A stretch of 64,000 bases of DNA, taken from positions 1,426,001 through 1,490,000 of the forward strand of contig JAUFOQ010000006.1 of assembly GCA_040285855.1 (NCBI GenBank), read 5' to 3'. This document shows, piece after piece, positions 18,829-64,000 of this stretch. The DNA comes from Eukaryota sp. GEM-RC1. Its lineage: Eukaryota. Under the pieces are notes generated by a model. The model searched no databases, was not told the DNA's origin, and worked only from the letters and a program-made list of their open reading frames with translations. Both the position numbers and the translations under genes were made by a program. Numbering within the stretch: position 1 is the stretch's first letter; each line of letters starts with the position of its first letter.

Positions 18829-19440
18829 GTTATTCCATGTTTAAAGCACATTGCTTGCATTCTAAAGTTGAACCAGTTTTGAATCACCTTTCAAAAAATG
18901 AATTTACTGATCAAAAAGAGGGGATCTCCATACTCCGTGGCCTAAATCGAGTCAATCATTAATGGATTTTACTACAGTAGATGTTTGTAACAAATCTTGT
19001 GTTAGTAGGATATTAGATTATTGTCTTAATCCATTAACAGCTGCTGAAAAGCTCAAACACTCCAAGTATGACTCTCCAGTAGAAGAATTAAATCGAAACT
19101 CAGATTCCAAATTTGTGTTTCAACCTGTTGCTGTTTCTCTTTTTGGAACGATTAGTCCTGCTTGTGATCAATTTTTCTAGGATTTCGAAGAACTGTGTAA
19201 AGAAAAGAAGCCCAAGTTTAGAATGGCTGAATGAAAAACCGTATTGTGGTTTCCATATATCGGAATATGCATTTCCATTTCTCTCGATTTGTTGGGAAAT
19301 TGTACAAGTTTGGTGTGAAGGTTAATGTTGAAAAACGTAATCTTTTATTGGATGGGGATGAAGTCGTTTGGATTTAGTCTTAGAATTACTTGTTTGTTTT
19401 TGCAATTTCATGGTTTTGTAGGAAGGTTACCCTATTGCCA
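18829..19440 (+). mobile_element. RLE non-LTR retrotransposon 3' fragment
   Basis: Encodes KVEP...GD...MDFTTVDVC...AEKLKHSKY...FQPVAVSLFG; near-identical inverted copy at 23613-24224. Confidence 0.75.
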
Positions 19441-19856
19441 ATAAGTTATTGGGCACCGAATACAATTGTTCTTCATACAGCTAATACTAGTTCCCCATTG
19501 TTTCCTTCCCGAAGTATGCATTTGTACATGATCAGATTACTTGAAGATGACAACTTAAACGAACAACGAATTCCAAAGTATATTTTAATTCAAGCTCTTA
19601 TGGTCACCAGTGCAATATACCAGTATTTTGCAGTAGTTCTACCACTAGAAGTAGCAATTCTATAGAGTGATCAATTTCATAGACCCTTTTCTATAAACGT
19701 GTACTTTCATACTCTCAGTATGTTCACTCAAGAAGACCACTCGACATCATCAGTGTTTCTTCCTTTAAGATCAGTTTACGAAATACAAAACAAACTGTAG
19801 AAATGATAGATACTGTATGTATAAACAATTCAAAAACTGGCAATCCTAAATGAAAT

Positions 19857-20129
19857 CTACAATAGGAAATACTTGCCATTTTTGTTCCCACCATCAATAA
19901 CTTGACATTTCACCGTATACGGCTTAAGGAAAATATCCTTGTGGTGAAAGTATGTTGATTCAAAATCATAGATTCCAGTAATGTCCAAAGAGCCTGTGTC
20001 ATCAACTGATCCATACGCAACAGGGATGTTGTTGTATACGTAGAAGAATACTTGGTCTTGTCTTGGATAAGGTTGAACCCAAACTTGGACGTTCTTTGTT
20101 TGTAATTGTAAATTAATGGCGTTTTTCAT
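19857..20129 (-). CDS. Hypothetical 90-aa protein
   Basis: ATG-started ORF with plausible globular composition; no recognised motif. Confidence 0.35.
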   Translation of the reverse strand: MKNAINLQLQTKNVQVWVQPYPRQDQVFFYVYNNIPVAYGSVDDTGSLDITGIYDFESTYFHHKDIFLKPYTVKCQVIDGGNKNGKYFLL

Positions 20130-20179
20130 TTAGCTTTTGTGGAAATTCTATTTATAGTACCAAAAGAATTACACACTAC

Positions 20180-22322
20180 TTAAGAGATTCAATGATTCGG
20201 ATCTGGTCATTCTTCAACCATACCTTTAATTCTGCTAAGTTCTCAAGTAATCTCGAAGACATTCTTGCACGTCTTGCCGTTTGAATTGAACCAGTTACAG
20301 AAAAAAATGATTGACAAGGAACTGATGTTGCTGGTGCAGACAAAAACTCATTGCAAGAGCGTATAACTCTGGGAACGCAGACCTGTTATCCTTCCACCAA
20401 ACAACAGGATCAGTTGACAAGGGAACTGTGCCTTCGGATAAGTATTTGTCCAGTTCATCTGCATGAACTAGTTCTCTATTGGAGTTTCTTTTCGATTGTA
20501 TAATTTCTCAAAGTGTGAAGTCTTCTTAACAGTTTTTGTTCTAGCAACAGGTTGGGCATTGTTCTCAACTGGTACATTGTCCGATTGACGATCTTTTGAG
20601 ATCTTGGCAGTAAGCTACGGATTCCTTTAATGTTGTTTTTCACTTCGAGATCTGATATCGGTAACATGTTTGTTTTGAGTCTCGGATCAAGGATGGAAGC
20701 GGTAGCAGCGTAGAAATCGTAAATCAAGTCAGAGTATTTCTCTCGAAATACTTGACACATTTTTTCAGCTGCTTCGTTGATGACGAATGGGAACTCGGGA
20801 TCCGTGGATGCTTGGACAATAAGCTTGTGTAAGTCATCTAAACAAAAGAGCACATGTGAGGCTGTAGCAGTCTTTGAAGCTGAAAGATCTTTAGTAGTAT
20901 CTTTAAACGGTTTAAGAAGTTGAATTAAGTTGCGAATAGTGGAAAGAGAAGATGAATCGATACAAAGGTAACTGTATCCGTTTTCTTGTGAAAGAAATTG
21001 TTCAATTGAAAATGCCTGTTCAACATAGCTTTCCAGTATCATCAATGTACTGTTCCAGCGTGTTTTGACATCCAAAGGAATTGTTTTTGGGGTAGCAATT
21101 CCGTTGCTTTCACAAAATTCAACATAAGTTTGCTTAAACAGAGAGGAAGTATGCAGTAAGACACAAAAGTTCCTTGCACTTTGAATGTGTTCTTCGAAAA
21201 TTTCGTGCGCTTTTCCTACAACAATGTTCAAGACATGAGCAATACAACGTCTAGAAAACATGTAAAAGTTCTGTTCTAGCAACAATTTAACAGCATTTGT
21301 CATGTTGGACGCATTGTCAGTAACGATACTGAAAACTTTAGAAATATTAAATTCCGCACACACTTGTTCAATGAATAAAGCAGTTTGCTCTGCAGTGTGT
21401 GGATGAAGGCATTGGAGTAGATCAAGGGGAAGACTGACCAACTGATGGTTCTCAGAAATACAGTGGACAGTTACTGCTAAAAAAGAAGTATTAGCACGAG
21501 AAGTTTAGTAGTCAACGGTAATAGACGGGAGCGATTCAATTTTGGCTAGGAACGTTTTGATCTCTTCTTTAACAGTTGTGTTTCTGGATATGATTCTCTC
21601 TCTAAGAGTGTTCCTTACGGGTACATTCGGCATAAGAGGAAGAGATTGAGTGCAAGTTAGCAAATCAATGAATGAGTCCGATTCTACAATGTTTAGTGAA
21701 ACGTTGTTCAAGACAAAGAAGTGAGTAAGTCTGTCGTCGAACGAGGGGGTTGATTTCTTAATGCCAAGAAGTTCAGTAATAGGAGCAGTTCTTTGAGGAT
21801 TTCCTTCTAACCATCCGTTGTGATAGTTATCTAGATGTAACTTTAATCTAGAAGTAGTAACCCGAGATTTATTAGACGGTTTTCCTTCAACATAAGGACA
21901 AAGAGAGCAAGTTGTTACCTTACCTTGATTGGAAGAGCTAAAGTGCTTCCAAACAGCAGAGGTTTTTTTCTTTAAAGTCGACGGGGATAGTACATCAGAA
22001 GAAGAGGATTGGGAGGGTTGGTCATCGTCACTATCATGAACATCAATAGGTGATGACATTCTCCTTGTACTTTGGTTAGGAAAAGAAACTAATGGGTTAT
22101 CAAAATCCATTTCTACTGATTCTTAATATGTAGAGTAGTTTTAATTATCAACTCGTTTATATACAATACAATATACAATGTAGTTCTACTTACATTTCCA
22201 TTTCCATATTATATTTCCGTTTCATTTCCATTTCCACATTCTCAAGAAATTTCGTCTATTTCCGCTTCCAGATGGAAATGGAAGTGAGAAATGTGGAATT
22301 TCATTTCACTTTGCCAAGTCTA
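20180..22322 (-). mobile_element. hAT transposon with BED-finger transposase (disrupted)
   Basis: SAVWKHF...CSLC...HLDNYH BED finger, ITVDY*TS, IVTDNASN, RCIAHVLN, DVKTRWNS, LDPRLK and a C-terminal WW...APATSV dimerisation domain. In-frame TAA at 21505 plus frameshifts. 5' TIR TAGACTTGGCA ends at 22322 with TTCCA subterminal repeats; 3' TIR not found. Confidence 0.88.
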
Positions 22323-23058
22323 ATCATGAGTCTGTTTTGGAAGGACATTTCCAATGTTGGACTTTCCAATCTTCCATGTCTAACTCTTTTGAATACAACC
22401 TTTCCAAAGCACTTGGCGTACTTCAAGTTTTGTCGTACTTCACGTCTACTGAAGTACGACAAAACCTGTAGGACGCTCACCAGTATCTACGTTGTCTAGC
22501 TATCCTTCAAGAACTTGTAACAAACGGGTCAAAATTTTGATTTCTGATACAAACAACAACGTTTATGATCAAAACAGTGAAAAATTGCATTTGCAAAAAT
22601 AACAAAACTTCTGATAGTTTTTTTAACAACTACATGTACAACTTCATATTTATCATCTTTAAATGCACCTTTTTTAAAACATCAACCGTCAGATCATCAT
22701 CGACTAATGGATCAATGACATCTGCTCCTCTTTTACCTAAAATGTTATCAGAATCGCTATTTGAGACTAATTGTTGTGACCAGTGTATTTGTGTAATTAC
22801 TTGTGGAAAAAATTTGTGATTGTTGTTGCATCAAAGCTGATGTCAACAACAAGTGGTTCTAATCATTGACTAATTCAAGTTTTGTTTGGTGGTAACTTTT
22901 CGGAATTGTGCTAGTCCGTTTGATAATTGGTTTTAAAAGTCTTTATTTAATTGTTGTATTCCTGTGGTGTGTTTTTCTCTGCACATAATTCATAGCTCCG
23001 TTAAATTAACTTAATCTCATTTGGGAATTTTAAAAGATTCACCATAGGCAATTTGTCT

Positions 23059-23130
23059 GCGACTGTAGTATAGCGGTTAGTACACATCGTTGTGGCCGAT
23101 GAAATCCTGGTTCGATTCCAGGCAGTCGCA
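23059..23130 (+). tRNA. tRNA-His(GTG)
   Basis: Acceptor GCGACTG/CAGTCGC, anticodon arm CATCG-TTGTGGC-CGATG, T-arm CCTGG-TTCGATT-CCAGG, followed by TTTT. Confidence 0.95.
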
Positions 23131-23280
23131 TTTTGGAACACTTACATTGATGGTGTCCCATTTTTAGCCGTACTGTTAGCAAGTTTACGAATTGTCTTAA
23201 CTCAAGTAACAAAACGCACGTACATCTACTAAGCCAAAGTCTCATTGATGTGAAATACAACAGTTTTCAACAAAAATTCC

Positions 23281-23352
23281 TTCTTCTGCCCAGAATCGAA
23301 CTGGGATTAGATGATTCAGAGTCATCTGTGCTAACCATTACACTACAGAAGA
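23281..23352 (-). tRNA. tRNA-Gln(CTG)
   Basis: Acceptor TCTTCTG/CAGAAGA, D-arm GTGTAATGGTTAGCAC, anticodon arm GATGA-CTCTGAA-TCATC, T-arm CCCAG-TTCGATT-CTGGG, downstream T-run. Confidence 0.92.
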
Positions 23353-23612
23353 TCATGTTTCAAACTTCTATGCACTCCAAGTGAGTTCTGAAGATACTTT
23401 TATATCCCATTACATTATTGTAACTCCGTTGAACGCAAAAGTCCTATATGCTATTTCTAGTGTTACGAGCCATATGCGTGTGCAAGTCGAAAAATGCAAT
23501 TGCGGCTCAGTACTCGATATTTCTTTTACCAATTCACTCCACTATACAACGCAAATTGAAATGAGTACAACAAATAGAGTTCAAGCAGAATATTTAGAGA
23601 ACTTTATTCGGA

Positions 23613-24960
23613 AGCCAATAAGGTAACCTTCCTACAAAACTATGAAATTGCAAAAACAAACAAATAATAATAAGACTAAATCGAAACGACTTCATCCCTA
23701 TCCGGTAAAAGATTACGTTTTTCAACATTAACCTTCGCACCAAACCTGTACAATTTCTCCATAATCGAGAGAAATGGAAAGGCATATTCCGATATATGGA
23801 AAACACAATACGGTTTTTCATTCAGCCATTCTAAACTTGGGCTTCTTTTCTTTACACAGTTCTTCGAAATCCTTGAAAAATTGATCACCAGCAGGACTAA
23901 TCGTTCCAAAAAGAGAAACAGCAAAAGGTTGAAACACAAATTTGGAATCTGAGTTTCGATTTAATTCTTCTATTGGAGAGTCAAACCTGGAGTGTTTGAG
24001 CTTTTCAGCAGCTTTTAATAGATTAAGACAAGAATCTAATATCCTACTAACACAAGATTTGTTACAAACATCTACTGTAGAAAAATCCATTAATGATTGA
24101 CTCGACTTTAGCCACGGATTATGGAGATCCCCTATTTTTTGATCAGTAAATTCATTTTTTGAAAGATGATTCAAAACTGGTTCAACTTTAGAGTGAAAAT
24201 CATGTGCTTTAAACATGGAATAACAAGAATCACGTACACCATCATGAATTACTGCACGTAGATGAATAAAATAACGACAATTAATTAAATGACGAAAAAC
24301 ACCATTAGCTCCAACAAGAGGAAGTTGAATAGTTTATTAAATTTACAGGCCAAATAGCCAAACGAAGACGCAGATTGATCATCCAAGCTTCATCAGATAA
24401 ATGAAATCCATACACTTTTTGGAATTTGAGAAATAAATCCAGAAGGTCCACTATTACAATTGTCAATCAAAAAAGCAGCAAACTCGGGACTATTAGTTTT
24501 AGCCATGCTAATACGATTATTAAAGTCCAAGAGTTCAAACTCCTTGTAAATATATTTTGCAGCTTACATACAGCAGAGGGTAAAAGCAGAATCTTGAATT
24601 TTCAAGTCTGAATTTTTGACCATTTAATAGAGTTTTTTTAAACATAAGATTTGGCAACTTTCTTGTTGGACAACCGCTTTTAAAATGCCATCATAAGGCC
24701 TCAAGGCCTTAAGGTACTTAACAATGACCCATTAGATGATAGAATGCCGCTAAAAAGTTGGAAATCGTTGATTACTGCTGTATCTGTCCAATATTAGCAA
24801 AAGTGAACTATAAATACTTAAGTTCTGCCATCATTGAATAACTTCATCAAGCTCAAAATTGGAGTAGAGTAAATAAATACTAAACCTCTCAATTCTTGTA
24901 TTCTATTTCTTCTGGAGTTAAAATTCAAAAGAGCACCATAATACGCATGTTTTTAATCAC
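23613..24960 (-). mobile_element. RLE non-LTR retrotransposon, longer degenerate 3' fragment
   Basis: Broken frames give YGFHLSDEAWMINLRLRL..WP, HLINC...IHDGVRD and KVEP...DFSTVDVC...AEKLKH. The upstream limit is approximate. Confidence 0.75.
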
Positions 24961-43641: not shown

Positions 43642-44184
43642 GAATGACTACCAGAAAGGGTTGACTGAAATTAACGTTGGTTGCCGATTTCACTATACAC
43701 TACATTTGTACTACATGTTAGACTTGGCAATGTTAAATGGATTCTACTTTGACAGTCTACTACATGTAGCTAGAGTAGTTTCAAATGCAAAATTCCACAC
43801 CTACCTTTAAGCATTCTCATTACAGTTTGGCACATTGTGCCACTCATTTACAAGCCACGAGCTAACTTATAAGATTCAAGAATTCTAGGGTACATCTTTC
43901 TATGCCTTATGTGGACAATTTCTTCTGTCATGTCCTGGTTGGTTACATGTCATACATTTACAAGGACTTTTAGGAGGCACAGGTCTTATCTGTCAGGTGA
44001 AATATGTTTAATCAATTGCTGTAAATAAACTGTGAAATATTAATATATTATCAAAAAAACAAATATTTCATTTGTAGAATCAAAATTGAGTACATGAACA
44101 ATGACGTGATTGGAAAGAAGCCATTTAGTGTTTCATAACAACATTAAAACGATGTTCAAAAAACTGAAAAAATTCAAATACTTG

Positions 44185-47199: not shown

Positions 47200-47330
47200 A
47201 ACCCTTCACATTTTCATGATCTCATGAGCAAGCTCGTAAGCAAACTCATGAGCAAAACTCACAGTTTGACAAATAAATGTCCTCATTCGCAAAGTCTTTT
47301 AAGACGAGCTAACTTCATAGATTCAAGATT
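47200..47330 (-). ncRNA. Candidate Fanzor omegaRNA scaffold / element right end
   Basis: Immediately 3' of the Fanzor stop. Contains a 7-bp inverted pair AGCTCGT/ACGAGCT (47231-37, 47304-10), short hairpins GTCTT-AA-AAGAC and GACA..TGTC, and two CTCATGAG palindromes. The position matches known Fanzor loci; boundaries are inferred. Confidence 0.4.
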
Positions 47331-50215
47331 CCTGATCTTTATGGTTTACGTGTGAGTCCTTGGGTACATCTTTCTTAGGCTTATTTGGACAAGTTGCTCT
47401 GTTATGCCCAGGCCGAAAACATATACCACACTTGTTAGGACCTCTGACTTTTGTTAGAGGACGCTTCGCTTTACCCTTACCCTTACTCACAGTCTTTTTC
47501 TTAGGAATCTGATCTGTATTCCCGCCATCCACGACAGGTGTTGTTTGAGATTTTGGTCTCTCGAGGATGGCAGGTCTACCTTGACCTTGAATGGTTCCAT
47601 TTACAATATTGTAAATATTGATAGCAGAATTGAAGTCTCTATTCCAGAGGACATGGCATTTAGCACATTCAACTAAGCCCCATGGTGAGACTTTTTTGCT
47701 CTTCAATCTTTCTTTTGATAATGGCAACTGTTTGGTCCATTCATCATCAAAGTTACGCTCCACAATATTGTCTAATTGATTGTGTTCCATAATTTCCTTT
47801 TTTAATTCTTTCTCTTCCTTCTGTAACTTCTTCTTCCAATGAGGATCAGTGACTTTTATCCTTTCAGGATTGGAACAGATACCTTCGTCGTTTCTGGAAA
47901 CACATGCAGAGCAACATTTGCTGGTCTTAAATTCATCAACTAGGAACACTTTAAATCCAAATTTTCTCAATAATTTCCGAATTGAAGCACCTTTTACAGT
48001 CGATGCTTTACCTCTTCTTCGACGAAAAGCAGTGTCGTTCCAGTCTCCATACCCAACAACGACTTCATCTGGGTTTCCAAACTGGAGAGCAAATCTGTGA
48101 AGCATGTTTTTTTCACTTCGTTCCTTTCTTGAATATTGTGTTAAGCGTCTACGTCTAAACCACTTTTCTTCGTAAATTCCTTCAGTAGTTCTTTGATCAG
48201 TAGTGGGTGATCGTAATAAAGAACAGGTAATTTCTTTACCAAGCACAAAAGCAGAATACTGAGTCAAATCACAAGATTTACTGCCTGGTGAGTTAGAGCC
48301 CCATTGATCTAAAATTTGTTGCCCATTTATGTCAATGCGACTGCCATCTGGACTGTGGATAAATTGGGTAGAATATTGTTGTAACCGTTCGGATTCAGAT
48401 AAACGGTGGAGATTATATCGTCTTATTTTCTTCTCCAGCTTCCTCTTCTTTCTCTTAGCTCTTTTTCTTTCCTTCCTTGTTTTTATCTTTTCCATGGAGA
48501 CTTGTTCATATCTGCCTTGCGCTCCCCAGCAGTGTATCTGAATACTTTCCAATCATCACGATTTTTCAACTTGACAGTTGATGGTTTGTCAATAGTGGGT
48601 GCGTCTTTCCAATCCTTCAATTCCTTTTTTAATTTTTTCAAGCTTCCTTTTTTCTTTGATGATTTTGGAGAAATCTTTCTTCTTCTGAGATTGGCTGATG
48701 TATCGAAACCTTCGATTTTCTTTTCCTCCTCAGATTTTAAAGAAGCACAATACATCAAATCATGCTGATTAGGATCAATAGCAACAATTCTTTTGGATTT
48801 CAAGTTTAAGTTTTGAATTTCTGTGGAACTCAAAGAATCAATGTACCTTTGAGTAGCTGTGTAGTCAACTGCTTTCACCTTCTTATGAGGATTTCCTCTC
48901 CCATCAAGCAGATCTTTCCGCATCATCATTAAACTACAGCTAACTCCATCTGTAGAAATAGAACTGTATTTGAAGTCATGAGACAATGACTTTGGAAGAC
49001 ACTTTGGTTTCAAAACTGAGTGCCAAATATCTTTTCGAACGTCATCAAAGCTACCTTTAATTTCTGATGCATAAACTTCTTTAAACCATGTAGTATCCAA
49101 TCTGATATGATTAGGAATCAGTGATTTTGTTAGAGGAAAAGGATTATTGGCAGTAACACCAGGACAAGAGTCCTCAACAAGACGTTTCAAATACACTGCA
49201 TGACTTAAGAATTTCAAAGGATCTACTTTTTCAGCATAATAGATTGTTTTCTCCATTTTACCTTCAAAAAAAGTAAACAAATAGTTAAAAAATAGTAAAC
49301 TCAGTCTAGAATTGGGATCAGGAAACACTTCAACATCTTGAAAATTAATATTTGAAATTTCCCCATTAATGATCAACTGTCTGACTTCATTAAGCTTTGT
49401 ACACAACTCTTGTCGTTGATTCTTATCAGTAAGCTTGTTAAGTCTATCTTTTTCAGGGTAACCAAATTAAATACTTGAAAAACATATTCGTGAAAGTGTT
49501 CACTCATGTTTGTCTTGTAATTCGTTATAATTTCAGTAGCCATGTAATGCAATAAACGAGATAAACGATAACTACTGGGAAACACAATTCTATCAAGTCC
49601 AACAGATCGAGCAGCTAGTTCTAAACGAGGAATGTAATGCATCAAGAAATGTTGAGCAAACTGTTTTTGAGTTGAGGCCTCATTTGGTTTAGAAATTATG
49701 TTTGTTAACGATTCTTGTACAGTCCTAATATGATTCTGATTGTTTACAAGTTTGTGGTCCCTAATCGTCATCATAGACAACACTTGTTCCATTGATTTCA
49801 ACGTAAAAAAATTCTTCCAGTATGGCAATTCAATTTTGGCAGTTTGAATTTTAGTCCAAAGGTCAGGTTCAGGTTTAGGTTCATCACTCGCATCTTCAAT
49901 ATTTTCTAATTTAATAGGAGGAGTAGCAGCATCGATAGACTCTGAAGGTACATCTGTTTCTTCATCAGTTGACTCATCTGTATCAGAATTCATTTCTTCC
50001 TTAACAGTTACATTTGGAACAGTAGCAGGCAGTAACTTCTGAATGTATTCTAAAATACCTGAATGGTGAAAATTATGAACAAAAAATGTTTCAAAAAGAG
50101 AGTACTACGGACTCTTACTTGGTGAGCTCTCTTAACACGAGATTCAATAAATTTAACCTTCGCTTTGGATACAACATTGTCTAGTCGTTTCTTAACCACT
50201 TTCATTGGTGACTTT
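47323..50215 (-). CDS. Fanzor1 (eukaryotic TnpB-derived RNA-guided nuclease) moiety
   Basis: Y...EIITNYKTNMSEHF, FPLTKSLIPNHIRLDT, ISTDGVSCS, RuvC-I IVAIDPN, FRYT, VVGYGDW, RuvC-II FLVDEFKTSKCCSAC, zinc finger CAKC and RuvC-III WNRDFNSAINI. Confidence 0.92.
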
Positions 50216-53134
50216 GAACGTAAGGTTTGCTTTTTGGGATCCAATAGGTCAGCCAACAAGTATTCAATCAGAGGTAATTGTTGAATTGAGTTGTTCAACA
50301 ATAGCGGTTTTGTCGATTCCTTGGCCCAAAGTTCATTTACTTTCTCCAAATTTCTTACAAATTTCTTTTTAATCTTATCGACCTTCACTTTGGGATTGTC
50401 TGGAACTAAAACATTAATACTGTCAATTATGCCATGCAAGTTTTGGACATTATTGACTAATTGAACTTCATCAGGATCAGAGTCATGCTTAAGTTCTTCC
50501 AAGCGTTTGACAGTTTCATTTTTAGAAAAATTATTCATTTCAAGAAAAATTTGAACAACATTTTCCAAAAAACGGCCACCAGTAAAGACATAAAAATTCT
50601 TCAATACAGCATTCAAATCGAGACTAAAAAACGGACCAAAAGTTGTTTCCTTACACCATTTGTTGAACCAAAAGGGAATATAGGGTTTAAATTCTGGAAA
50701 AGTAAACGTTGTATTGATTTTGAAGACTTGACAACGTGATACAAGAAAGGGAAATGTATCTAAGTGAAAGTCATAACTCACAAACAATCGCGGACAATGT
50801 TGAGTAATGAAGGAGATGAAGTTTTTAAGCATACTGGATTCACTATCTGAAATATGTAAAGTACACAAATCCAAATTTGTAGTCTCAAAATTGCCATAAG
50901 AAAATAAGTGTTTTTCATTAAACTCATTGTGATCAATGATCTGGATGGAAATTGATACAATCGGATCAACAGAAGAATCACGTTTAACTTCTAATTGATC
51001 TTCAGCTTCACCTTCAACAGTTTCAATGTCATCATCATCTTGAACAAGTTGAACATTATTGCCATTAATTCTTTCTTTTTTGGCAAAATCACTTTGAACA
51101 TGAATTAAACAAAAAGTTGGCAGATTGTTCCAAAGTAAAGGGGAATTAAGAAAGACTTGAACTTGTATTTCTTGTTCGATAGGCTCAGTATGTAGATTTA
51201 CTTCCATTTTATGGATTTCTTCTTGAATTGGCGATGGATACGACATAATGGAGGCCTGTGATTTTGGTGGTAATTCAGATGGTGGTAATTCAGATGGCGA
51301 TGATAGTTCAGATGGTGGTACTTCAGATGATTCCAATGTGGACATACGGCGGTAAGTCTTTCGTATTGGAGTGTCACCAGTTGAAACAAGGGAGCTGATA
51401 GTTCTAAATTGATTTCGTTGAATTAAAGGTGAACCTCGTGGTGATGGAACATCTGAAATTTTGGCTTTACTTTTTTTAGTGCTTAAACCAGTAGATGTTT
51501 TAGTGCTAGCAAGACGTGAACCTGTGAGAGGAATTGAAGTGGTTGGATGTTCTTTACCGGCAGGAGGTTGAATGGGTAACGATGGTACAATAGGAGCTAC
51601 TGTGGTTTGACGTTGTTGTAGATAAAGTGTCCTTTGTTGAGACAATACATCCAGAATTTTTTCACGAAATATGTTTGCTTGAAGTTCAGTGTTCACTTGG
51701 ACCAAATCAGACTCCACATACATCAGAGACGGAACGTACGTGAGTCTTTTAAAAAGTTCAACATATTTTTGAATATACGCAATGACATAAACTCCACAGT
51801 CGTTAGCAGACTGTGTTTTAGTCACAGGCACATAACGGAAAACATACCCCCATGGCACAAGTACTTCGGATAATATGTCTACAGCTGATTTTACCATAGA
51901 CTTACTCATATCGACGGTAGTTAACATTGGATCAATGAAGATCCATTCCTTTTCACAACAGTCTATAATGGCTAAACCCCAATGAGAACCAGTGACACCT
52001 TCTCTGGAATAATTAGCATTTCTAGTCATGGTATCACTAAGGGGAACAAAGAGATATTTGGAGTTTGTGATTTGATTTTTCTCAATTTTCGTCAACAACC
52101 ATTGATCTAGCGGGACATCTGGTGAAACAATGTATTGAAGCCATGTGGTCGGATGGATAAAACTGCTTTCAAAATCTAACCCTGCTTCTTGAAATATCAC
52201 TTTACAGTACTCCACTATCGCTTCGTCATCAAGCCATTGATTAGGATAAACTGAGTTTATGGCTTCTTGAGTTACGGGTCCTGGATTGGATTCAATATCA
52301 CCATCAGCGGTGAGGTCTTTTGGGAACGGAGGATGGGAAGGGATAAACAGGGGAGACGAGTACTTCATGGCAACAAATGTATGTGTTGATAAAACACAGA
52401 ATGAACTGTCCTTATCTAAACTCAACTGAGCCCGAAACCGTGCAATGGAAACAGTCACAAGTTGAGTCAGATAAGAACAGGATGGCGGCATCATCGAAGC
52501 AACGGCAGTGGAGGGAGAAGCAACGGCAGTGGAGGGGAAAGAACTGTCCTTATCTAAACTCAACTGAGCCCGAAACCGTGCAATGGAAACAGTCACAAGT
52601 TGAGTCAGATAAGAACAGGATGGCGGCATCATCGAAGCAACGGCAGTGGAGGGAGAAGCAACGGCAGTGGAGGGGGAAAGAACTGTCCTTATCTAAACTC
52701 AACTGAGCCCGAAACCGTGCAATGGAAACAGTCACAAGTTGAGTCAGATAAGAACAGGATGGCGGCATCATCGAAGCAACGGCAGTGGAGGGAGAAGCAA
52801 CGGCAGTGGAGGGAAAGAACTGTCCTTATCTAAACTCAACTGAGCCCGAAACCGTGCAATGGAAACAGTCACAAGTTGAGTCAGATAAGAACAGGATGGC
52901 GGCATCATCGAAGCAACGGCAGTAGAGGGAGAAGCAACAGCAGTAGAGGGAGAAGCAACGGCAGTCATCACAGCAACGGCAGTAGAGGGAGAAGCAACAG
53001 CAGTAGAGGGGGAAAGAACTGTCCTTATCTGAACTCAACTGAGCCCGAAACCGTGCAATGGAAACAGTCACAAGTTGAGTAAGATAAGGACATGATGGCG
53101 GACAACATCTGTTTGGATGCAGAACAAACGACAT
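47323..53134 (-). CDS. Polyprotein 1 (~1,930 aa after indel repair): repeat leader - 2A - Ulp1/SENP8-like protease - PolB-exonuclease-like domain - Fanzor1 - zinc knuckle
   Basis: ORFs 52826..53134, 50050..52632, 49373..49993, 48483..49406 and 47323..48552 are consecutive, and each break lies at a homopolymer run. 2A, protease, exo-like domain and Fanzor N-terminus lie in a single uninterrupted frame (50050..52632). Confidence 0.75.
52276..52335 (-). other. 2A/StopGo ribosomal skipping peptide 1
   Basis: HPPFPKDLTADGDIESNPG|P matches the D(V/I)ExNPG|P consensus with the usual upstream DL..DG. Confidence 0.9.
52403..53100 (-). repeat. Tandem array of ~138-bp hairpin units (5 copies, the last partial) in the leader of polyprotein 1
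   Basis: Units start (+ strand) at 52403, 52541, 52680, 52817 and 53016. Periods 138/139/137 differ only in a G-run; the 199-bp unit has extra ~21-bp sub-repeats. Confidence 0.95.
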
Positions 53135-53248: not shown

Positions 53249-54766
53249 ATGTCCTACTCAATCTTCAAACTCAGAAATACTTCTGAACAAGAAAGTCGTT
53301 CCCGTACCATCAAAACATATATGAAACTTGTTGTAAAGCTTGCTGATAAGCATGCAGTTAACTTGTCAGTTGTTCTTCTTCCTTATGGAACATACAATTC
53401 ATGGAGAACTAAATCCATCCACATAACGGAAGTGTCAACATCTGACTTACCAGATGATCTTAAAAAGGGTACCATGGATTTTTGCCTCAACTACAAATCA
53501 GCCGTTGCCATTGTGCTAGATGTTGATCTAGAAACTGTTCATCTCTTTCCTTTTGATGGTTCTTATGAGAAGCGTGACATATCTCTTCCACTTCCTTCAA
53601 CAACTTTAACTCTAAATCATCTTAAGGATCTACTCAAAGACGTTAAACGAGTTACAATTGCTCGTTCCCCTCCTCCTCCTCAGCCTCAGTCTCCTCCTCT
53701 TTTACATGATTGTGACAATACTCGCTTTGACGATACTCCATCGCAAGTCGTTTTTCCTTCACCAAAACGTCGTATTGATAACTTCGCAATCAATCATATT
53801 CATTCTATTTTCTCTGAACCATCTGAAATAGTTCCTGTTCCAGTCAGTGATAATGCTAATTTATCTAAACCTATGAAACGCAAAAAACAACGTAACCCGT
53901 TGATTCTTTCTGTAGATTTAATCAGTGATCAGTTTTACATAAATTCAAAATTAAAATTTGAATTTAGTGATATTGAGAAAATGTTGACAAAGGATGATAG
54001 GGAAGGTAAAACACAACTCTTGTTGAGTTCTGAACTTGATTTCATTGTGATGCTTGCATTCCAAAAATTTAAATCAAGTAGGTACAAGTTCCTGCAATCT
54101 CAAGAAACTCAACAGTTGGTAGGTGATCCAATATGCTATGCCTTACATTCTGGTAAGGCCATTGTCGATACACTAAAATCAGGAAAACGAATTCTTGCCC
54201 CATTATGTTTGGTGAAAGAACATGTTCCTGGTGATGCAGGATCTGGTCATTGGATTCTTATTGAATTGTTTCTAAATGAAGCAAATGTATTATTATTCAA
54301 TATTTATGATTCTTTGGATTACTCATTAACCACTGAATTAATCGTTAATCCTTTTAGAACTGTTTATGGATGTGGGGAAACAAATCTGTTTGCAAGATTA
54401 CCAGAGTATAAGGTGGACTATTATATACCTTTTGCACAGTCAACATCGTCTCTTATCTGTGGATGGATTGTCTGTTTGAATGTTACTTTAATTTTACAAG
54501 GATTAATGGTTGATGCACGTCAGGAACAAAATCAGACAAAATTATACACTAACAGATCAAGAAAAAATCTATGTCTTGTTATGTATGATCTACTTCAGAG
54601 TGTACAACCTGATTTGGTGACAGAACAAAATGTAATTGATGGTTCAACAACAAAATTTGAAAACAAATCGTCAAAGACAAAAGACGAAAATGAAGTTTTA
54701 GGGAAAAAACAGGAAAACGAAGAATTAAAACCACTGCAAGTGCTTTTGGAATCAAAAATACTTTAA
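53249..54766 (+). CDS. Ulp1/C48-family cysteine protease (second copy)
   Basis: C-terminal GSGHWILIEL...IYDSL...AQSTSSLICGWIVC carries the H-D-Q-C catalytic set; N-terminal half not recognised. Confidence 0.75.
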   Translation: MSYSIFKLRNTSEQESRSRTIKTYMKLVVKLADKHAVNLSVVLLPYGTYNSWRTKSIHITEVSTSDLPDDLKKGTMDFCLNYKSAVAIVLDVDLETVHLFPFDGSYEKRDISLPLPSTTLTLNHLKDLLKDVKRVTIARSPPPPQPQSPPLLHDCDNTRFDDTPSQVVFPSPKRRIDNFAINHIHSIFSEPSEIVPVPVSDNANLSKPMKRKKQRNPLILSVDLISDQFYINSKLKFEFSDIEKMLTKDDREGKTQLLLSSELDFIVMLAFQKFKSSRYKFLQSQETQQLVGDPICYALHSGKAIVDTLKSGKRILAPLCLVKEHVPGDAGSGHWILIELFLNEANVLLFNIYDSLDYSLTTELIVNPFRTVYGCGETNLFARLPEYKVDYYIPFAQSTSSLICGWIVCLNVTLILQGLMVDARQEQNQTKLYTNRSRKNLCLVMYDLLQSVQPDLVTEQNVIDGSTTKFENKSSKTKDENEVLGKKQENEELKPLQVLLESKIL

Positions 54767-55231: not shown

Positions 55232-58200
55232 CTATATAAAATCAAGTGCTTGCAATCCTGAGGGTCTAAAGAAGTGTTTTTCCAAATTTTGCTTTTTGTC
55301 TTTTTCACGGATAGAATCGTAAAAGACAACGATTTTTTGATTATGTTCATACAAATTGTAAACATGTCTGGCATCATTTGGCAGATCAAAGATTATACAA
55401 AGATCAGCCTGAACAGAATGGTTAACCGCTAATTGAGTAGTACTGATCAATAAAACAGGATAAGTCTGTTCATCGAATGTTTTCAGACTTGATGTAATCT
55501 TTCGTGGTTTTCCACCCTCTAGTGACACAACTTTAAAAGAAATCTCAGGACGAAGCCTTGAAAGTTTCCTTACTTTGTCAACTGAATCAGTTGTAATTAC
55601 AACTTTTGTAACTCAAATATAGTCAACAAATGCTTCACATTGTTGATTTTTTCATCAAAATTCCATCTAGATGAAAGAAACTGAAGTCTTTTCGTCGTAT
55701 CAATGTCGATGGGATGAGCACTTTCTTCAACAACAGGAATCTCAACTTGTTGAACTTGTTGAGTCGATTGAACAGTTAAAGCATGTAGTTCAAGACTTCG
55801 TTGTTCGTAAATATTTTTGAATCACAATAACGAACATCATGAACTTCTAATGGTACACCAGAAATACCAATCACAGATAATGCTGAAAGCATTAACAGTG
55901 TTCCATCCTTTTCAGAACAATGAAAGAATTTAAATCATTGCAAAAATCGATTTTTAACAGTTGACCTGTTAACTCACCACTTGAACAATCAATAATAAAT
56001 TGAATCTGTTTCTTTGGTAGTTTCAAACCGAAACCAACACAGAACCCAAATTCCGTGATGTACATTATTGTGTCATAATGCTTAACATACACTGCATCTA
56101 TAATTCTGTCATCTTTGTGACAGCAGCAAAGTTCCCATACAGGTTGTTCACCAAGCAGCTCCCTTTCAAACAAATTTAGCTTTCGGATTGTACAAGTGCC
56201 GACAACTAGAACGAAATCGTCATAGCACTTCAAACTTTTGAATTCTTCATCACGATCAATTTCAGACATGTTTAAATCCATTAATGTTGAAAAATCTGAA
56301 CAATCAACACAATTTTTTTCATCTTCCTGCACAAAAATAATCAACAACAGAGTCTTCGTTGCGACAACAAAACAATTTTTGCAGCAGCCATGTCAATACA
56401 TTGAGAATCAAAACTGTCTCTGGCCAACGGCAACGGTAATACTCGTCGAATAGTCTTTTGTTTGTCCATTTTTGGCTTGTATTGAATCATAAATATGGGC
56501 CCTTCAAAAGCAATCAGTATGGCCTGGTAAAGCAATTGATGATGAAGTGCAAACATAGTCAATTGATTGTCAAATGGTTTACACTGTGGTCTATCTTGAT
56601 CAATACTGCGACTGAACCTTCGGAGTTCTTTATCAATGTTGTAGACTACCAATCGTAATGTAACATTCAACACAGGAGTAGGAGTAGGAGTAATAGCAGA
56701 AAAAAATTCTGTATGGAGAGTTTCGACAACGTCGTTGTCTATATTCAACGTTCCAATGGCAATTTTTGATTCAAATGAAAAAACAACATAGAAAGTTCTC
56801 ATTTCTTCACGTGTAAAATTTAAGATTTGAACATTTTGTCCTAAATATTTAGCAGTATGAGAAGAGGCAGTACAATACGACTTAGTCCAAGATGACAAAT
56901 CCAAAGTACTTGTAGCTACTGGTGACTGGGGCAATGCAGTAGTTTCACTAATCATGGGTTCAGGAAGGTCAGCGTTTTCGGGGATCATAGGTTCTTCAAC
57001 CTTGTGTTGGGCTAAGGTAATTTCAGAATATACGACTTCATTAAGTGTAGTACATGATGATGCACATAAAGGACACGCAGGATCAAAGCACATCAACAGG
57101 TCCTGTTCATCATTGACTTGGAAATTTAGTAACTGGAAATGATGTTTCCTTCCATTCACATAATCAACGGTAACTGGTGGACTGTTACTTTTCAGTAAGT
57201 TGAAATCAAGAATAATAATGTTGTCATACCATGATTTCAACACAGTTATGGGAACCTCACCTTGTTCCGTTAAATATACCAAAATACGTAATCGATTGAT
57301 ACATCCAAAGGTGGATTCGATTGGTAACTCATGATAAGGCCAGTAAACATTCCAGACACGTTTTACCTCAAAAGATCCATGGATATCCAGCTCATTACTG
57401 TATGCAATTAATTGTTTGAACCTCGAATCTTGACAATGCATTGGTGTACCAACCTTGATAGATGGCTTTGCCATTTCCGAAACCAAATTGATATTGAAGT
57501 TCATTAGCCATACGATGAACAAGTATTGACATGAAGAAGGAATATGAGACAAGAATTGTGGAAACTTATCACCAACAGAAATACCATTATGATAACCTAG
57601 ATCTGTAGGTACAGGGAACAGTGATTTGGCACATTTAACTTCCTTGGACCACTCATTATCAATACGAGTGTATTGAGTCAAATCACTACAAGGACTTGAC
57701 ATAATGTCGAAAGTTAATTTAATAGAATTTCTTGGTATAGTCAAATGTACGATATTACCCCACTGTAACAATTGGTTGTACATGTTCCAAAATTCTCGGT
57801 CATTGACAACTTTCAATGCCATTGATAAATTGAATCGTGATTTGATAATGAATCTATGCCAATCAAGATGGAACGTAAGAGAAAAATTTTTTAATGAATC
57901 AAGAGTTCCACGGCACTTGTTGACAAACAGTAGATTTTCAATTTCAGTTGTATTCTCTGAATGCAACATAACAACAGTGCTTTGGGTTTCACCTGGAGCT
58001 AGATCTGAAGTAATTTTAACTTTTAAACATAATGTCTCTGAACGAGTACTTTCATCATCACTGTCATTAACTTTTAGAGATTTGGAAGATTTGACAATAT
58101 TTTGTTCATCAAACAATTTCTTTATAAAGTTGTTAAATTTTTCTCCATTGACATAACCTTCCAACTTCAACCTAACTGAGAATGAATTGTCTACTACAGT

Positions 58201-61200
58201 TGAATGGAATGACTTATTGGGATAAGAAGCCACAATGGCTTGAAAGAGAGACGTCGTTGAATTTGGAGGTTCAAAAGAGAAGAGAAGATTGTTGATTCAT
58301 TTTGAAACTTATTGAGTGTAACTTCAGAAGGATTTGATATGAAATTGACAAGTTTTAGAGCAATGCCTTCCAATCCTTTTAATTGATTATTGAGATGAGC
58401 ATTAGAATCTTCCATATCCACGAAACGTGAAACTAAAGATCTTAGTTCATTTAAATATCGCTCTAGTTTTTTCAGAAAAACTAATTTAGATAAATTCTTA
58501 AGGGCTTGATCATTAAGGGTTTGATCACGTGTTGGGACAATATCCATATTTTTAATAAATTCGCCACAGAAAAAGTAATGAACCAAGGATAATTTGAAAA
58601 ACATGTCTGAACGTACAACTTTAGATTCTTCAATAGTAGAGAGTTGTTTGAGTAAAGGAATCGATTGTGAAAAGGTATACAAATCGTAAAATGACATAAA
58701 AGTTGTTCGAGAGCAACGAATGAACGACATAGAATTGATACCCGCAAGAAGAATCAATCCAGGACACAGGTAATTGTTTGTTAAACAGAAAAATAAAAAC
58801 TTGAAGTTGTAGAATGAAATATTGGCATTGGTGCAAATCTTTCCGAGATAAGTAAGGGGAGAATTTAGTTGGTTTTTTGAAAGAACATTAGTGCGGAAAA
58901 GAACATCAACCGAAGATATGATGTTGTCGCTAGAAGGAACATCAGGCAGTTGACTGATAAAAAATTCAGGGGGATTTGGACGATTACTGATTAAAAATTG
59001 AGGATTTTCAGCAATCTGTTTGATTGTTAACAATGGCTCAATCAACGAACAATTTAGAATTTCTGGTTCGTCGTAATGCAATCTCGAAGTTCCATTCGGA
59101 TATAAGTTTGTCTGCACAAGACGTAACGAAAGTCCAGGAGAATTTCTTCCAGCACGACCAGAGCGCTGGTCCAAAGAAGCAATGGAGCAATGATGAGTGT
59201 CGAGAAGGTCATCTGCATCAGTTTGCTTTGACAAACCACAGTCAATGACAAATTTGACCCCATCAATAGTCAATGAAGATTCTGCTATATTGGTAGCAAT
59301 GACAATTTTAAATTGTTTTCTCGCTGGTTCAGCCACAGCTGCATCTTGTTGGACTGAATCCAGACTTGAATACAACGGATACACACCTGGCTTCTCAGAA
59401 GAAGCTGGGATGTATAGACCACCAGATCCACTTTTTTCTGACTCTCATACTCATTCTCAATAATATTACTGAGAGTTGTAATTTCTGGACTTCCAGGAAG
59501 AAACACGAGCAAAGTAAATCCTGCACATTCTGGTTCAAACTGAAAAAGTTTCTGAGACAGGGAGTAATAACAGAGACATAGTCGGGCTAACGCTCTGAAA
59601 TTGATACTTTTATATGAAAGAGGATTACAGTTTTGAGTGAAATAGTCGTAGTATAAGTTCACATTTAAGACAAAATAAGTGTAAATATCAATAAAATGAT
59701 CATTGAAAACCTGTTGAAGTGTAGGTTCAAAAATCGGAGTTATCACAAGTTTTGATATTAACGGACCATAATGAAATTCATTTTGACGAACAAAATTCAC
59801 ATCAAGGACAATCAGTGGATTGGTTCTTCCAGCTGCATGGATAGTATAGGAGGGTTCGGTATCTAAATAATTTCCTTGTGTAAGGTAATTAAAACAAGGA
59901 TTAGGTTTGTCCATAGTTGCCGAACAGATTACCACTCTCAATTTTGAATCAGTTTGGGAAATTATTCTCATTTGTGCTAATAAAATGTCAATGTCACATT
60001 TTCTTTCATGAACTTCATCCACCATGATAGTTGCAAATCGAGACAGATTGCTATTGTTTGTCAGAAATTTAGAAGTGAAGGCAGCGGTTTGAACTTCGAT
60101 AAATCTTGGAGAATGTACTGGAATGTTCGTATTCTTGTTGCCTGTTCGGTATCCAGACAGAGGAAAATCACTATCACATAAATCATTGATAAAATTGGAG
60201 AGTTTTGTGGCTGGTAGAACTCTAGGTTGACACACAATGATTGGTTTCAAAGTAACCATAACCACAACAACACCAGTTAAGACAGATTTCCCGGAACCTG
60301 TTTGACCAGAAACAATAAACGGAATAATATTGTTGTCTTTGACATGATTTTGACCAACAACACGAAACAATTGATAAAAAGTGTCTTTTCCTTCATTAAC
60401 AAATGCAATACGGCAGTTACGTGCTTTTGAAATCAACTGAAAGCAAGAAAACACCAAGTGGAAGTAGGCGTCATTACTGTCAACAGTATGATTCCACTGT
60501 TCATTTAGTGTCAAAATTTCAAGAATTTGTGTTAGTAAATCACTTTCGCGGACATAAGATTTCAAATGTGCTAATTTAGAGCTTACTTTAGGAAAATCAA
60601 TTGATGTAAATGTACACGTTGGTTCCTCTGGTGAAGTCACAGTGCTTGGGAAATTGTAAACATAGCGGGGAGGTCGTCTCCATTGAAGATAATGATCTAA
60701 CAACATCTTGTAATCACTATGATTTGACGCCAACCATGACAATGAGACTAAGTATTCCATTGCCTGGAAACAGAAAGACATTAAAGAGAGATCTTTTTTT
60801 TCTTTTTTTGTTCATAATGGTAATGGGCACAAAATGACAGTTGGAACATGAGCATACTCATAGTTTCAATTTTGTTTTCGAAAAAATCTTGATATACAGT
60901 AAACTGATGTCGGTAAACTTCTTTCCGTTGTACAACTTGTTTAGTTTCAGGGTCTTTAATTTCGACAATGCGGCTTTCTTCATCTGTATCCACAAAAGTA
61001 TAGTGCTCGAGAAAATGACAAAAGTTAAAAAATCTTGAAAGTAATTGAGAAGTGTAGGACGAATCTCTGATATTATTAAAATCATCCCACATAATACTAA
61101 GAGAAGTTTGATTATATAGATCATCAAATCCGTCATCATTTAAAGGATCGTCTGTAGGATCGTCAGTATGTTCAAAATCAGAATCTTTGACATCAACATC

Positions 61201-62808
61201 AGGTTTTTTGGGGGCTTCTTTTTCAATTAATTCAATAACATGAGCAATATCAAAGATTAACATTTTGAGTTTATAACCAGCTTTTGACTTTGCAAACTTT
61301 TCAATAACTTTTTGGTTTTCTTTGTACATTTCCAAAGTAAAATGATTATTCGTACGATCATACACTTGAAGGTTGAGTTTCTTCTCCTCCACAACAAATT
61401 GCAGATGGAGCATTGTTAATAAAATGTCCAGCATAACCTCAGGACGTACCAAAACTTTAGGGTTGATATTTTGATACAAGGATGTGATACTTAATGAAAC
61501 ATCACTAAGTCTAAAAGTTTGGAAGGGACAATCATTATAACTGTGACCAGGAAGAAGGCAGAAGAGACATGGAGCAATAAAAATGCAAAACGATTCACGA
61601 AAAGAAGGTTGTTTTTGAGGACAATGGGGAGGCATCTCATATTTGAATCCAAGAGGCTTAATCGGTAAACTCACAGTAGATTCTCGATTAGGGTCACACA
61701 ATTGCAACCAATATTTATGGAGGGATTCCAACGCTCCATCATAATTGAGCAAGTAATGATTAGCATCTTGTTGACATTCAATCAACTCCGATTCATAGTG
61801 TTTGGCCATGATGTAATTTTCAATTCTCCAATTACTTGGCGTGTCGCCAGGTTTGCAACACTCTTGCATAATTTGGGCCAGGAACGAGCGTCGTGATTCA
61901 TTGTCTGGATTGGGAATGTGATCTGGAGCGAGATCAGTTAAGTTTTCGGATTCATCTATAAAAACATGATTCATACATGAACAAACTTGGAAACCAGGTG
62001 TTCTTCCAGATCTTAGCACTGGATAAGCAAAAGTTTCATGTGGAATACGGCAGTAACGATGCAATATGCCCATGTGGTATTTAGTTCTTTGATTATGTTT
62101 CTTTTGTTTTAGCTGAGTTTCTTCTGTTGGCGGTTCTTCTGTTAGAGTTTCTTCTGTTGGCAATTCTTGTGTTGGCGGTTCTTGTGTTGGCGGTTCTTCT
62201 GTTGGCGGTTCTGGCAGAGATGGAGGAGGCGATGGTGACACAGAAGTTCTTCTGGGTCTCTTTACTTCTGGGGATGGTAAACGATCATGGGGACCTGGAT
62301 TCTGCTCAACGTCTCCATCGATAGAGAGATCACGCTTCCATGATGTGGACGAGAGGATAGAGCACAGAATAAGCGGAGACGACATCGGGAAGCACGTATC
62401 CACACATTTCTTCAACCCACCATCCATATCCCGTGACCGTGCTATGGAAACAGTGTTTGGGTGATGTGATGAAGCAATGGCGGATGTGGACGAGAGGATA
62501 GAGCACAGAATAAGCGGAGACGACATCGGGAAGCACGTATCCACACATTTCTTCAACCCACCATCCATATCCCGTGACCGTGCTATGGAAACAGTTTTTG
62601 GGTGATGTGATGAAGCAATGGCGGATGTGGACGAGAGGATAGAGCACAGAATAAGCGGAGACGACATCGGGAAGCACGTATCCACACATTTCTTCAACCC
62701 ACCATCCATATCCCGTGACCGTGCTATGGAAACAGTGTTTGGGTGATGTGATGAAGCAATGCCGGATGTGGACGAGGCGAGGGGTGTTAGCAGTATAATA
62801 GAAGTCAT
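55232..62808 (-). CDS. Polyprotein 2 (~2,500 aa after indel repair): repeat leader - 2A - Pro-rich - CCHC knuckle - DEAH helicase - unknown - degenerate RecA-like helicase domain
   Basis: Abutting ORFs 60781..62808, 59285..60781, 58194..59384, 56341..58233, 55892..56347 and 55232..55528 on one strand with little or no intergenic space; joining them into one gene is inferred. Confidence 0.65.
58900..60330 (-). CDS. DEAH/RHA-family RNA helicase core within polyprotein 2
   Basis: Motifs I GQTGSGKS, Ia CQPR, II DEVHER, III SAT, IV LVFLPG, V ATNIAESSLTIDGVKFVIDCG and VI QRSGRAGR; one frameshift at the run near 59431-59437. Confidence 0.92.
62115..62212 (-). repeat. 15-bp coding minisatellite (EEPPT/QEPPT) just after 2A peptide 2
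   Basis: EPPTEEPPTQEPPTQELPTEETLTEEPPTEE. Confidence 0.85.
62290..62340 (-). other. 2A/StopGo ribosomal skipping peptide 2
   Basis: WKRDLSIDGDVEQNPG|P matches the D(V/I)ExNPG|P consensus. Confidence 0.92.
62342..62776 (-). repeat. Tandem array of 141-bp units (3 copies plus 12 nt) in the leader of polyprotein 2
   Basis: Units start (+ strand) at 62342, 62483, 62624 and 62765; copies are nearly identical; 47 codons each, frame preserved. Confidence 0.95.
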
Positions 62809-62958: not shown

Positions 62959-64000
62959 TTATTCTAAATATTGATGTTGATAAAGTAAAACATAGCCATT
63001 TAAAGAAATCTCAGTTAATACTGTCTGTTCGTCTACACCTTTCTTGCAATCACTATTGGTATCATGTAACCACCAAGAACCTTCTTTTTCCTTTGCATAT
63101 GTCACACAGTGACCGTCAGCAAGGGAATCATAATGACAGATCGCAGACAGCAGTCTGTATGTGTATTTTTCTTCAACACTACTTTTGGTCTTGGTTGACA
63201 CTTTGGCGGTTGAGGTTCGACTGGTACTTCATTCCCAATCACTACCTCTAACAAAATGCTGACTCCCACAATTTCTTTCATTTTCATTAGAAATGTCAAA
63301 GACAGACAATTCTTCTGATGTTGGATAATGAGACAATGTGTAAATGTCCTTAAGTGGCAGTTGTGAGTTGATTTCATTGGTAGGGGAAAACTCAATCGAT
63401 TCTGAACCCAATTGTGCTTCAGAAGACAGGAATAGATAGAGTGATAGATTTGAAGAAATAATAACTGGTTGAGGATGTCCAGTCAGTCTAATGATAAGAG
63501 CTTTTGGAAGAGAAGCAAAAGTTTCAGTAATTTCTGATTTTTGTTCAGGACAAGTAGCACAAATTTTTTCTTTTCGAAAAGGTAGATGAGCTTGCAACAA
63601 TGATTCGAGATCGGTTGGTCTAGAAGGATACCGCCTTTGGATACTTTCCTTGTTAATTTCCAAGGCGAAGTGAATGTTAGATGTTGGATCAGTCCCACAC
63701 CAAGAACATTTTGTTGTTGTTTTAATACAGAAACAAAATGCATTAACAGCACAAGAATGCTTTAATTTTTGAGTTATCAACAATTGATCTAAATCTTGCT
63801 GAAGTGATGATTTGACATCTAACTGAGTCTGAACTTTTTTTGGTGATGGTTTCTCATCTAAATCATATCCATAATATTGGAAGTCTGTAGTATCAGTTTC
63901 TTCTGATTCAGACTGTGGTTCAAATTTTTGACAAAAGAGTGTAATTCATCATTTGATGAAGATGGCAAGGTGGTGCGGAATTCCTTGTCAAGTGTTTTTA
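62959..64000 (-). CDS. Ubiquitin-specific protease (USP/C19), C-terminal part; broken by indels and probably starting beyond the window
   Basis: CSWC and CATC zinc pairs, FASLPKALIIRL, His box LSAICHYDSLADGHCVTYAK..GSWWLHD and the terminal GYVLLY box. Cys box not seen. Confidence 0.75.

Follow-up and report, generated by a model that had tools for sequence, protein, structure and literature searches.

To our knowledge, Fanzors have been described as stand-alone nucleases. Here, we analyzed a 64,000-nucleotide (nt) stretch of DNA from Eukaryota sp. GEM-RC1 (contig JAUFOQ010000006.1, positions 1,426,001 to 1,490,000), referred to as the window, in which a Fanzor1 gene is preceded by a 2A-like motif, a C48 (Ulp1/SENP8-like) protease domain and a family-B DNA polymerase (PolB)-type exonuclease domain. 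According to the accessible parts of the papers cited here and below, Fanzor1 proteins are defined by a TDG motif in the WED domain and a RuvC-II Glu that precedes the zinc finger by six residues (PMC10711439), and their RuvC-I motif is mostly DPG, with D383/N385 in SpuFz1 (PMC10432273). The window gene resembles Fanzor1 (SpuFz1, PpFz1 and GtFz1) in its TDG motif, D-P-x RuvC-I, shifted RuvC-II Glu, C4 finger, NRD motif and fold (from an orthologue model), and also in being multi-copy with no linked transposase seen (PMC3627910, PMC10432273, PMC10711439). It differs in carrying about 690 extra N-terminal residues (C48 and PolB exonuclease), a 2A-linked leader, a zinc-knuckle tail and RuvC insertions of about 110 amino acids (aa), and in its length of 1,650 aa, compared with mostly 590-800 aa for full-length relatives among the best 150 of 188 matches.

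An N-terminal 2A on a mobile-element open reading frame (ORF) is also found in non-long-terminal-repeat ORF2p (L1Tc, Ingi, CR1, and L2; PMC3708506), and some ORFs of the Dualen/RandI type or with OTU fusions contain a deubiquitinase domain (bioRxiv 10.64898/2026.06.17.732966). In contrast to those retrotransposon ORFs, the cargo in the window is a Fanzor with no reverse transcriptase or APE, and its protease is a C48 rather than a Josephin or OTU domain. In Ulp1-carrying Mutator-like elements (MULEs) of the type without terminal inverted repeats (Kaonashi/VANC), a C48 domain has been captured by a DNA transposon protein and linked to anti-silencing; however, it is fused to VANC and not to an RNA-guided nuclease, and the accessible text mentions no 2A (PMC13317346). 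The engineered TREX2-SpCas9 likewise tethers a 3'-5' exonuclease to an RNA-guided nuclease (PMC13370227), whereas the fusion described here is natural, PolB-derived and kept in two species, one of which has an intact site and the other a decayed one. Such a Fanzor fusion was absent from the titles and abstract openings searched, where Fanzor combined with metamonad returned 0 records. In the accessible parts of the supplements to PMC10530073 and PMC10432273, which exclude figure S1B and a picture-only file of PMC10530073 that may list fusions, there was no entry of an exonuclease, Ulp1, SUMO or 2A type. These searches agree with the original prediction, whose author knew no description of the architecture. 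The exonuclease fusion is the firmer novelty of the two fusions.

The minus strand of the window from 53134 to 47323 reads, in order, as a tandem-repeat leader, a 2A motif, a C48 protease, a PolB-exonuclease-like domain and a complete Fanzor1 (Table 1). Four overlapping frames span 52692-47323. The first of them, ORF 50050..52692 (stop to stop), contains the last repeat units, the 2A, the C48 and the exonuclease-like domain, then runs stop-free into SPMKVVKKRLDNVV..HQVRVRSTLFLKH (including SPMKVVKK), a stretch that aligns to the N-terminal end of ordinary Fanzor1 proteins; the remaining Fanzor parts lie in the three further overlapping frames. Pfam and a frame check placed every piece of the predicted uninterrupted frame (leader, DIESNPG/P, C48, exonuclease-like domain and Fanzor N-terminus) where it had been located. 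Read with X at the three breaks, the post-2A product has 1,652 aa and 0 stops, and the anticipated fusion of about 1,650 aa is further borne out by paralogues that read through the breaks and by an unbroken orthologue.

The Fanzor motifs, including the RuvC acidic residues, had been predicted to continue across three homopolymer indels, and all were seen, with each junction one base short. They comprise STDGVS at 48953 (WED), IDPN with the RuvC-I D at 48776, E-FKTSKC-CSAC with the RuvC-II Glu at 47934, six residues ahead of the zinc finger, and the C4 finger followed by RuvC-III (CSAC..CAKC-HVLWNRD, D at 47637). The assignment to Fanzor1 is upheld by these motifs, the Pfam TNB and Protein Data Bank (PDB) matches, and the orthologue fold. 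The Bao-Jurka spacing for Fanzor1, D-X(125,275)-[TS][TS] (PMC3627910), is exceeded in the window (283) and in the second-species protein P0078 (281), compared with 170-182 in three ordinary relatives, because of insertions in RuvC; this range is descriptive, not functional. At the sequence level, the nuclease residues are intact in the window copy, and nuclease activity is predicted.

The unbroken orthologue came from a HMMER search with the paralogue P0007, which gave 188 matches at E 0.001; among the best 150 of these, P0078 (1,473 aa; Eukaryota sp. TZLM3-RCL, cluster of 4) was the only protein longer than 1,000 aa. P0078 and P0217 (1,473 and 1,479 aa) each consist, in one unbroken frame, of a leader, GDVEANPG/P, a Ser/Pro linker, a PolB exonuclease (Pfam E 5e-13) and a complete Fanzor1 with TNB, and neither has a C48 match in Pfam. 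The window Fanzor is 29% identical to that of P0078 (E 1.5e-81), and in a quick tree with long branches and 43 rows in all, the Fanzors of both species formed one clade (SH-aLRT 99) apart from the 37 others. An AlphaFold2 model of the exonuclease-Fanzor part of P0078, built from 89 sequences, had a mean predicted local distance difference test (pLDDT) score of 70, with the Fanzor part mostly at 80-97. Its top seven Foldseek matches were Fanzor1 structures (PpFz1, SpuFz1, and GtFz1; E 2e-22 to 2e-15), compared with E 0.03 for Fanzor2, and SpuFz1 was matched at E 5e-19 with a TM score of 0.78. The structural match to Fanzor that had been set as a check was therefore obtained with P0078, not with the window copy, whose sequence matched SpuFz1 and PpFz1 in the PDB.

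The exonuclease domain of the window gave profile matches to family-B polymerases (E 2.5e-6) and is 29% identical to that of P0078 (blastp E 4.6e-12). All carboxylates of the DEDDy pattern (ExoI DxE, ExoII NxxxFD, and ExoIII YxxxD) are kept in P0078, P0217 and P0219 of the second species, where the motifs read SFDVET, YNCDKFD and YCVND or YCLND, whereas the window has FCLIHVQ, YDFHLDT and NSIQQ and has lost the ExoII and ExoIII carboxylates. Its ExoI was assigned to HVQ in a by-eye alignment, from the spacing and the predicted strand; DIET at 51030 was rejected as ExoI and sits in an unconserved acidic loop. Thus, the predicted PolB-exonuclease-like domain holds as homology, but the catalytic motifs of the window copy are decayed. 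A structural model of the window protease-exonuclease region matched family-B polymerases and a NEDD8 protease, in agreement with the sequence but adding little. Divergent subfamilies also occur among GEM-RC1 records (P0075, P0079, P0080/P0233, P0037, and P0077), of which one retains part of an exonuclease motif (YNCDKFT) and another is nearer the second-species type.

In the C48 domain, the catalytic tetrad is kept (His 51984, Asp 51933, Gln 51813, and Cys 51798, as H99, D116, Q156 and C161), within the motifs HWG, FIDP and QSANDC. Weak PDB sequence matches were to NopD, ChlaDUB and Ulp1, and Foldseek led from a low-confidence model (pLDDT 37) to a NEDD8 protease. Among the GEM-RC1 copies, subfamily A, which includes the window copy, has one C48 and subfamily B two, the second with Ser in place of the catalytic Cys. 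Within a single lineage, the protease fusion has good support; the predicted tetrad and fusion were found, but the protease did not prove to be a conserved partner of Fanzor and is better read as a lineage add-on, given a second species without it and a subfamily with two. Because the second species carries 2A-exonuclease-Fanzor unbroken and without a protease, this core is the shared state, with proteases added in the lineage where the exonuclease decayed. The exonuclease-bearing state would then be ancestral, on the basis of its intact active site and not of a rooted test.

Other protease-like sequences lie in the window. On the plus strand, head-to-head with the Fanzor leader and separated from it by 115 nt, ORF 53249-54766 has C48-like motifs (GHWIL, YDS, and Q..S.ICG) with no Pfam match and an Atlas lead to C48 at 0.90. 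It may be part of the Fanzor element; as a relative of the fused protease it was rejected, since it did not align with the protease alignment (probability 0.6%). By eye, a minus-strand fragment at 63100-63945, also with no Pfam match, resembles a USP/C19 ubiquitin protease.

The leader was correctly predicted to consist of repeats, which are 98% identical, spaced by 199/137/139/138 nt and different in length at a C-run only; its start, however, is the ATG at 53134, and the leader is itself broken at C-runs. The paralogues P0244 and P0245 start with MSFVLHPNR as in the window and run in one frame through the 2A, and unrelated repeat leaders are found in other subfamilies (P0027/P0030/P0032/P0238). 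The 2A consensus is GD(V/I)ExNPGP, although the motif alone is insufficient for ribosome skipping and context is needed (PMC3708506). It is matched in the window and present in B-type and second-species models, with an NLGP variant in P0219. The 2A of the window copy would free the leader from the post-2A protein.

A second 2A polyprotein, also homopolymer-broken, lies on the minus strand at 55892-62808, with 141-nt leader repeats that have "TVSIAR" in common with the Fanzor leader, GDVEQNPG/P at 62313 and, following it, a DEAH helicase with long regions of unknown nature. It belongs to a cluster of 14, in which P0010 (1,629 aa) is unbroken, and it suggests that a leader-2A cassette is placed on unrelated cargo throughout the genome. 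A link between this polyprotein and the Fanzor element was rejected, as 0 of 12 helicase models had a family member within 10 locus tags, against an expectation of 1.4.

Table 1. Features of the Fanzor1 fusion gene and related sequences in the window
Feature	Position	Strand	Evidence or remark
Tandem-repeat leader, 138-nt/46-aa units, start ATG 53134	52279..53134	-	Repeat analysis; broken at C-runs in window copy
2A-like StopGo motif PPFPKDLTADGDIESNPG/P	52276..52335	-	GDIESNPG/P, D at 52299, Pro 52278
C48 (Ulp1/SENP8-like) protease domain	51700..52278	-	Pfam E 6.5e-6, 26.6 bits vs cut-off 20.7
Ser/Pro-rich linker, predicted disordered	51120..51650	-	Sequence; pLDDT 21-38
Whole PolB-type 3'-5' exonuclease domain, without polymerase palm	50250..51120	-	DNA_pol_B_exo1 Pfam E 3e-7, 30.5 vs cut-off 23
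Fanzor1 (WED/REC/RuvC/TNB)	47600..50211	-	TNB Pfam E 8.8e-9; PDB SpuFz1 E 2.8e-7, PpFz1 E 4e-5
C-terminal extension and stop, CCHC zinc knuckle (47430-47389)	47323..47600	-	zf-CCHC_2 E 0.029, below Pfam cut-off
Junction 1, T6 run, one base short	50081..50086	-	Read through in 11/16 A-type, 4/4 B-type models
Junction 2, A5 run, one base short; least certain	49449..49453	-	Broken alike in 16/18 A-type; P0071, 5/5 B-type, 4/4 second-species read through
Junction 3, A4 run, one base short	48488..48491	-	Read through in P0044, P0051, P0052, P0053
Candidate omegaRNA stem inside ORF tail, just after RuvC-III	47510..47590	-	z -3.0, 0/200 shuffles as stable
Conserved region past the stop, moderately structured; may be omegaRNA (second candidate) or element end	47230..47330	-	z -2.3; shared with 43800-43885
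3'-end-only B-type remnant (knuckle and post-stop sequence)	43800..43990	-	Encodes RPVPPKSP..C..C.QPGHDRRNCP as in P0034/P0058

The family counts 80 gene models at 74 separate places (by locus tag), and the gene in the window is one of many copies of a Fanzor1 gene that likely belongs to a DNA transposon without a transposase. Paralogous copies with the same fusion, as foreseen in the original prediction, include P0247 (98% identical), which has leader, 2A, C48, exonuclease, junction 1 and REC in one frame of 1,040 aa, and further A- and B-type models; B-type P0029 spans C48, exonuclease and the Fanzor N-terminus, and P0001/P0007 run from the exonuclease tail to RuvC-I. A-B mosaics are also present (P0026 and P0030), leaders vary among subfamilies, and C-terminal zinc knuckles number two in B-type models and none in the second species. 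Within the ORF tail, at the place where ordinary Fanzor1 ORFs end, lies a hairpin at 47574-47521 that, compared with synonymous recoding, was the most stable of the ORF4 windows (n = 33; z -4.1). The residues on its two arms change jointly across subfamilies (PAIL/VDGG, PAVL/EDGG, PSVL/ENG, and PSAL/ESG), a pattern compatible with pairing that is seen in residues, not codons. The post-stop structure scored z -2.3 behind the fusion gene and -0.5 in the 43800-43990 remnant, these being two DNA copies only. Either the hairpin or the post-stop region may belong to the omegaRNA; Rfam returned no relevant match, its one chance match having an E of 0.83. Scans with the C-terminal alignment gave 0 relatives among 184 pattern matches in viral contigs and, among the metagenome matches listed, one false positive at a bacterial membrane transporter locus. 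The flanks hold intact eukaryotic genes and several transposons, namely a hAT transposase with a BED finger (20476-22122) between inverted repeats of about 600 nt with 91-95% identity (18829-24224), a MULE transposase (1885-3525), a gag/aspartyl-protease remnant (7119-7715) and an element resembling a miniature inverted-repeat transposable element with 58-nt inverted repeats (9244-10295).

GEM-RC1 and strain RCL are free-living metamonads with Illumina-corrected Nanopore R9.4 assemblies (10.1101/2023.05.03.539051), and the paralogue clusters matched by the protease-exonuclease frame (n = 11) are all from GEM-RC1. Tallies cover 15 of the 26 members of the largest cluster, with the clusters of P0023-P0027 and P0029-P0031 set aside. 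From the paralogues and the window, 12 distinct break sites were curated, replacing an automatic count that had mixed in normal ends and B-type divergence. Eleven of the 12 fall within 4 nt of a run of at least 4 (25% background) and 10 of the 12 near runs of at least 5 (11% background), one of which, junction 3, counts only via an adjacent run. Besides the 11 models that read through junction 1, 2 of the 16 A-type models reaching it are broken as in the window (1 being its own), 2 are gapped over it and 1 ends just before it. Junction 3 is passed by 4 of the 5 A-type models holding the FRYT motif; the fifth has an earlier break at a G4 run. Downstream of junctions 1, 2 and 3, no stimulatory RNA structure was detected (z 1.27, 0.41, and -0.29). 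Because of the paralogue read-through, the homopolymer breaks and the lack of stimulatory structure, junctions 1 and 3 are read as sequencing slips, as the original prediction of homopolymer indels had it. For junction 2, that prediction stands only in part: the break is probably a slip as well, but it recurs in 16 of 18 A-type models (1 being the window's own), with P0071 reading through and P0223 passing the run only to break soon after.

This recurrence is what one would expect if junction 2 were real in subfamily A, either as a -1 recoding site yielding mostly a protease-exonuclease-REC fragment and some full-length protein, or as a lesion in an amplified, nuclease-dead subfamily, and its context, G-AAA-AAG, resembles a slippery heptamer. 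We nevertheless consider this improbable, given that P0071, all five B-type and all four second-species models pass the junction, that no downstream structure was detected there, and that the RuvC and zinc-finger residues 3' of it are intact in the fetched C-terminal cluster members. It is also unlikely, and slightly more so, that Fanzor is mainly expressed alone from the Met at 50205 with the upstream frame as a separate or minor product. The part from this Met equals a normal Fanzor1, and the Met is kept in subfamilies A (SPMKVV), B (PPMKVV) and C (CPMKVI) and in P0078 (PGMKTV); yet it is Ile in P0217/P0218/P0219, and in every lineage, across about 30% identity, the exonuclease runs into the Fanzor without a stop. 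Least probable of all, the window copy and most others could be dead pseudogenes with real indels and the fusion a fossil of an inactive element. Many models are indeed truncated or rearranged (an internal deletion in P0036, the A-B mosaics P0026/P0030, and the 3'-only remnant), and the exonuclease is decayed, but 1,652 codons contain no in-frame stop, the breaks are restricted to homopolymers, and the copies are mostly 86-100% identical in protein, which points to recent spread.

With moderate confidence, we favor a polyprotein fusion in which the 2A frees the leader, leaving a protease-pseudo-exonuclease-Fanzor of about 1,650 aa in functional copies that would home by omegaRNA guidance. Several points weigh against this explanation. 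The junction tallies carry a bias, since fragments ending at junctions gave access to the clusters; junction 2 is broken more often in A-type models (16 of 18) than the A6 run at 51081 (3 of 10); and no full-length model of the same subfamily (A-type) was seen among the gene models. Predicted introns can be hidden in gene models, as in P0022 and P0244, which skip junction 1. Separate expression of Fanzor is possible, since its part of the protein begins with a Met in subfamilies A, B and C and in P0078. Between 45500 and 56000, inverted repeats occurred only as chance-level pairs, with no convincing terminal inverted repeat or target-site duplication, and no transposase linked to the Fanzor element was found. 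The models are poor for both the exonuclease part of P0078 (pLDDT about 25-47) and the window protease-exonuclease region (36.7), and the exonuclease and protease roles are proposed by analogy.

Under the polyprotein fusion, the 2A would release the repeat leader, and the Fanzor would load an omegaRNA from the element 3' end and cut empty sites, after which repair would copy the element back. Such restorative homing has been reviewed for TnpB, and its experimental support concerns TnpB, not Fanzor (PMC13565253). Since the cut would lie at a distance from the junction, it would leave a short, non-homologous 3' tail for the ancestral exonuclease to trim; this domain is intact in the second species and would be reduced to a scaffold in the lineage of the window. 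An analogy for this trimming is proofreading by polymerase delta during gene conversion. The proposed role of the protease is to remove SUMO, NEDD8 or ubiquitin from chromatin, from repair factors or from the fusion protein itself and so to counter silencing or turnover, by analogy with the Ulp1-bearing VANC (PMC13317346). A broader and doubtful, though conceivable, extension is a self-contained homing machine. It would join an RNA-guided cutter to its own proofreading-type exonuclease for end trimming and, in one lineage, to ubiquitin-like proteases that can be exchanged. A 2A leader cassette, which this genome has on an unrelated helicase polyprotein too, would release it, and it would reach many loci with no transposase of its own.

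A natural exonuclease-Fanzor fusion maintained across two species at about 30% identity offers a direct test of break-end processing in Fanzor homing, and the unbroken orthologue of 1,473 aa can be tested without resolving the frameshifts of the window. The unbroken 2A-exonuclease-Fanzor is likely the natural analogue of editors that have been fused to exonucleases by engineering. Subfamilies with the protease, in turn, tie an RNA-guided nuclease to ubiquitin-like signaling and provide a handle on the capture of Ulp1 proteases by transposons.

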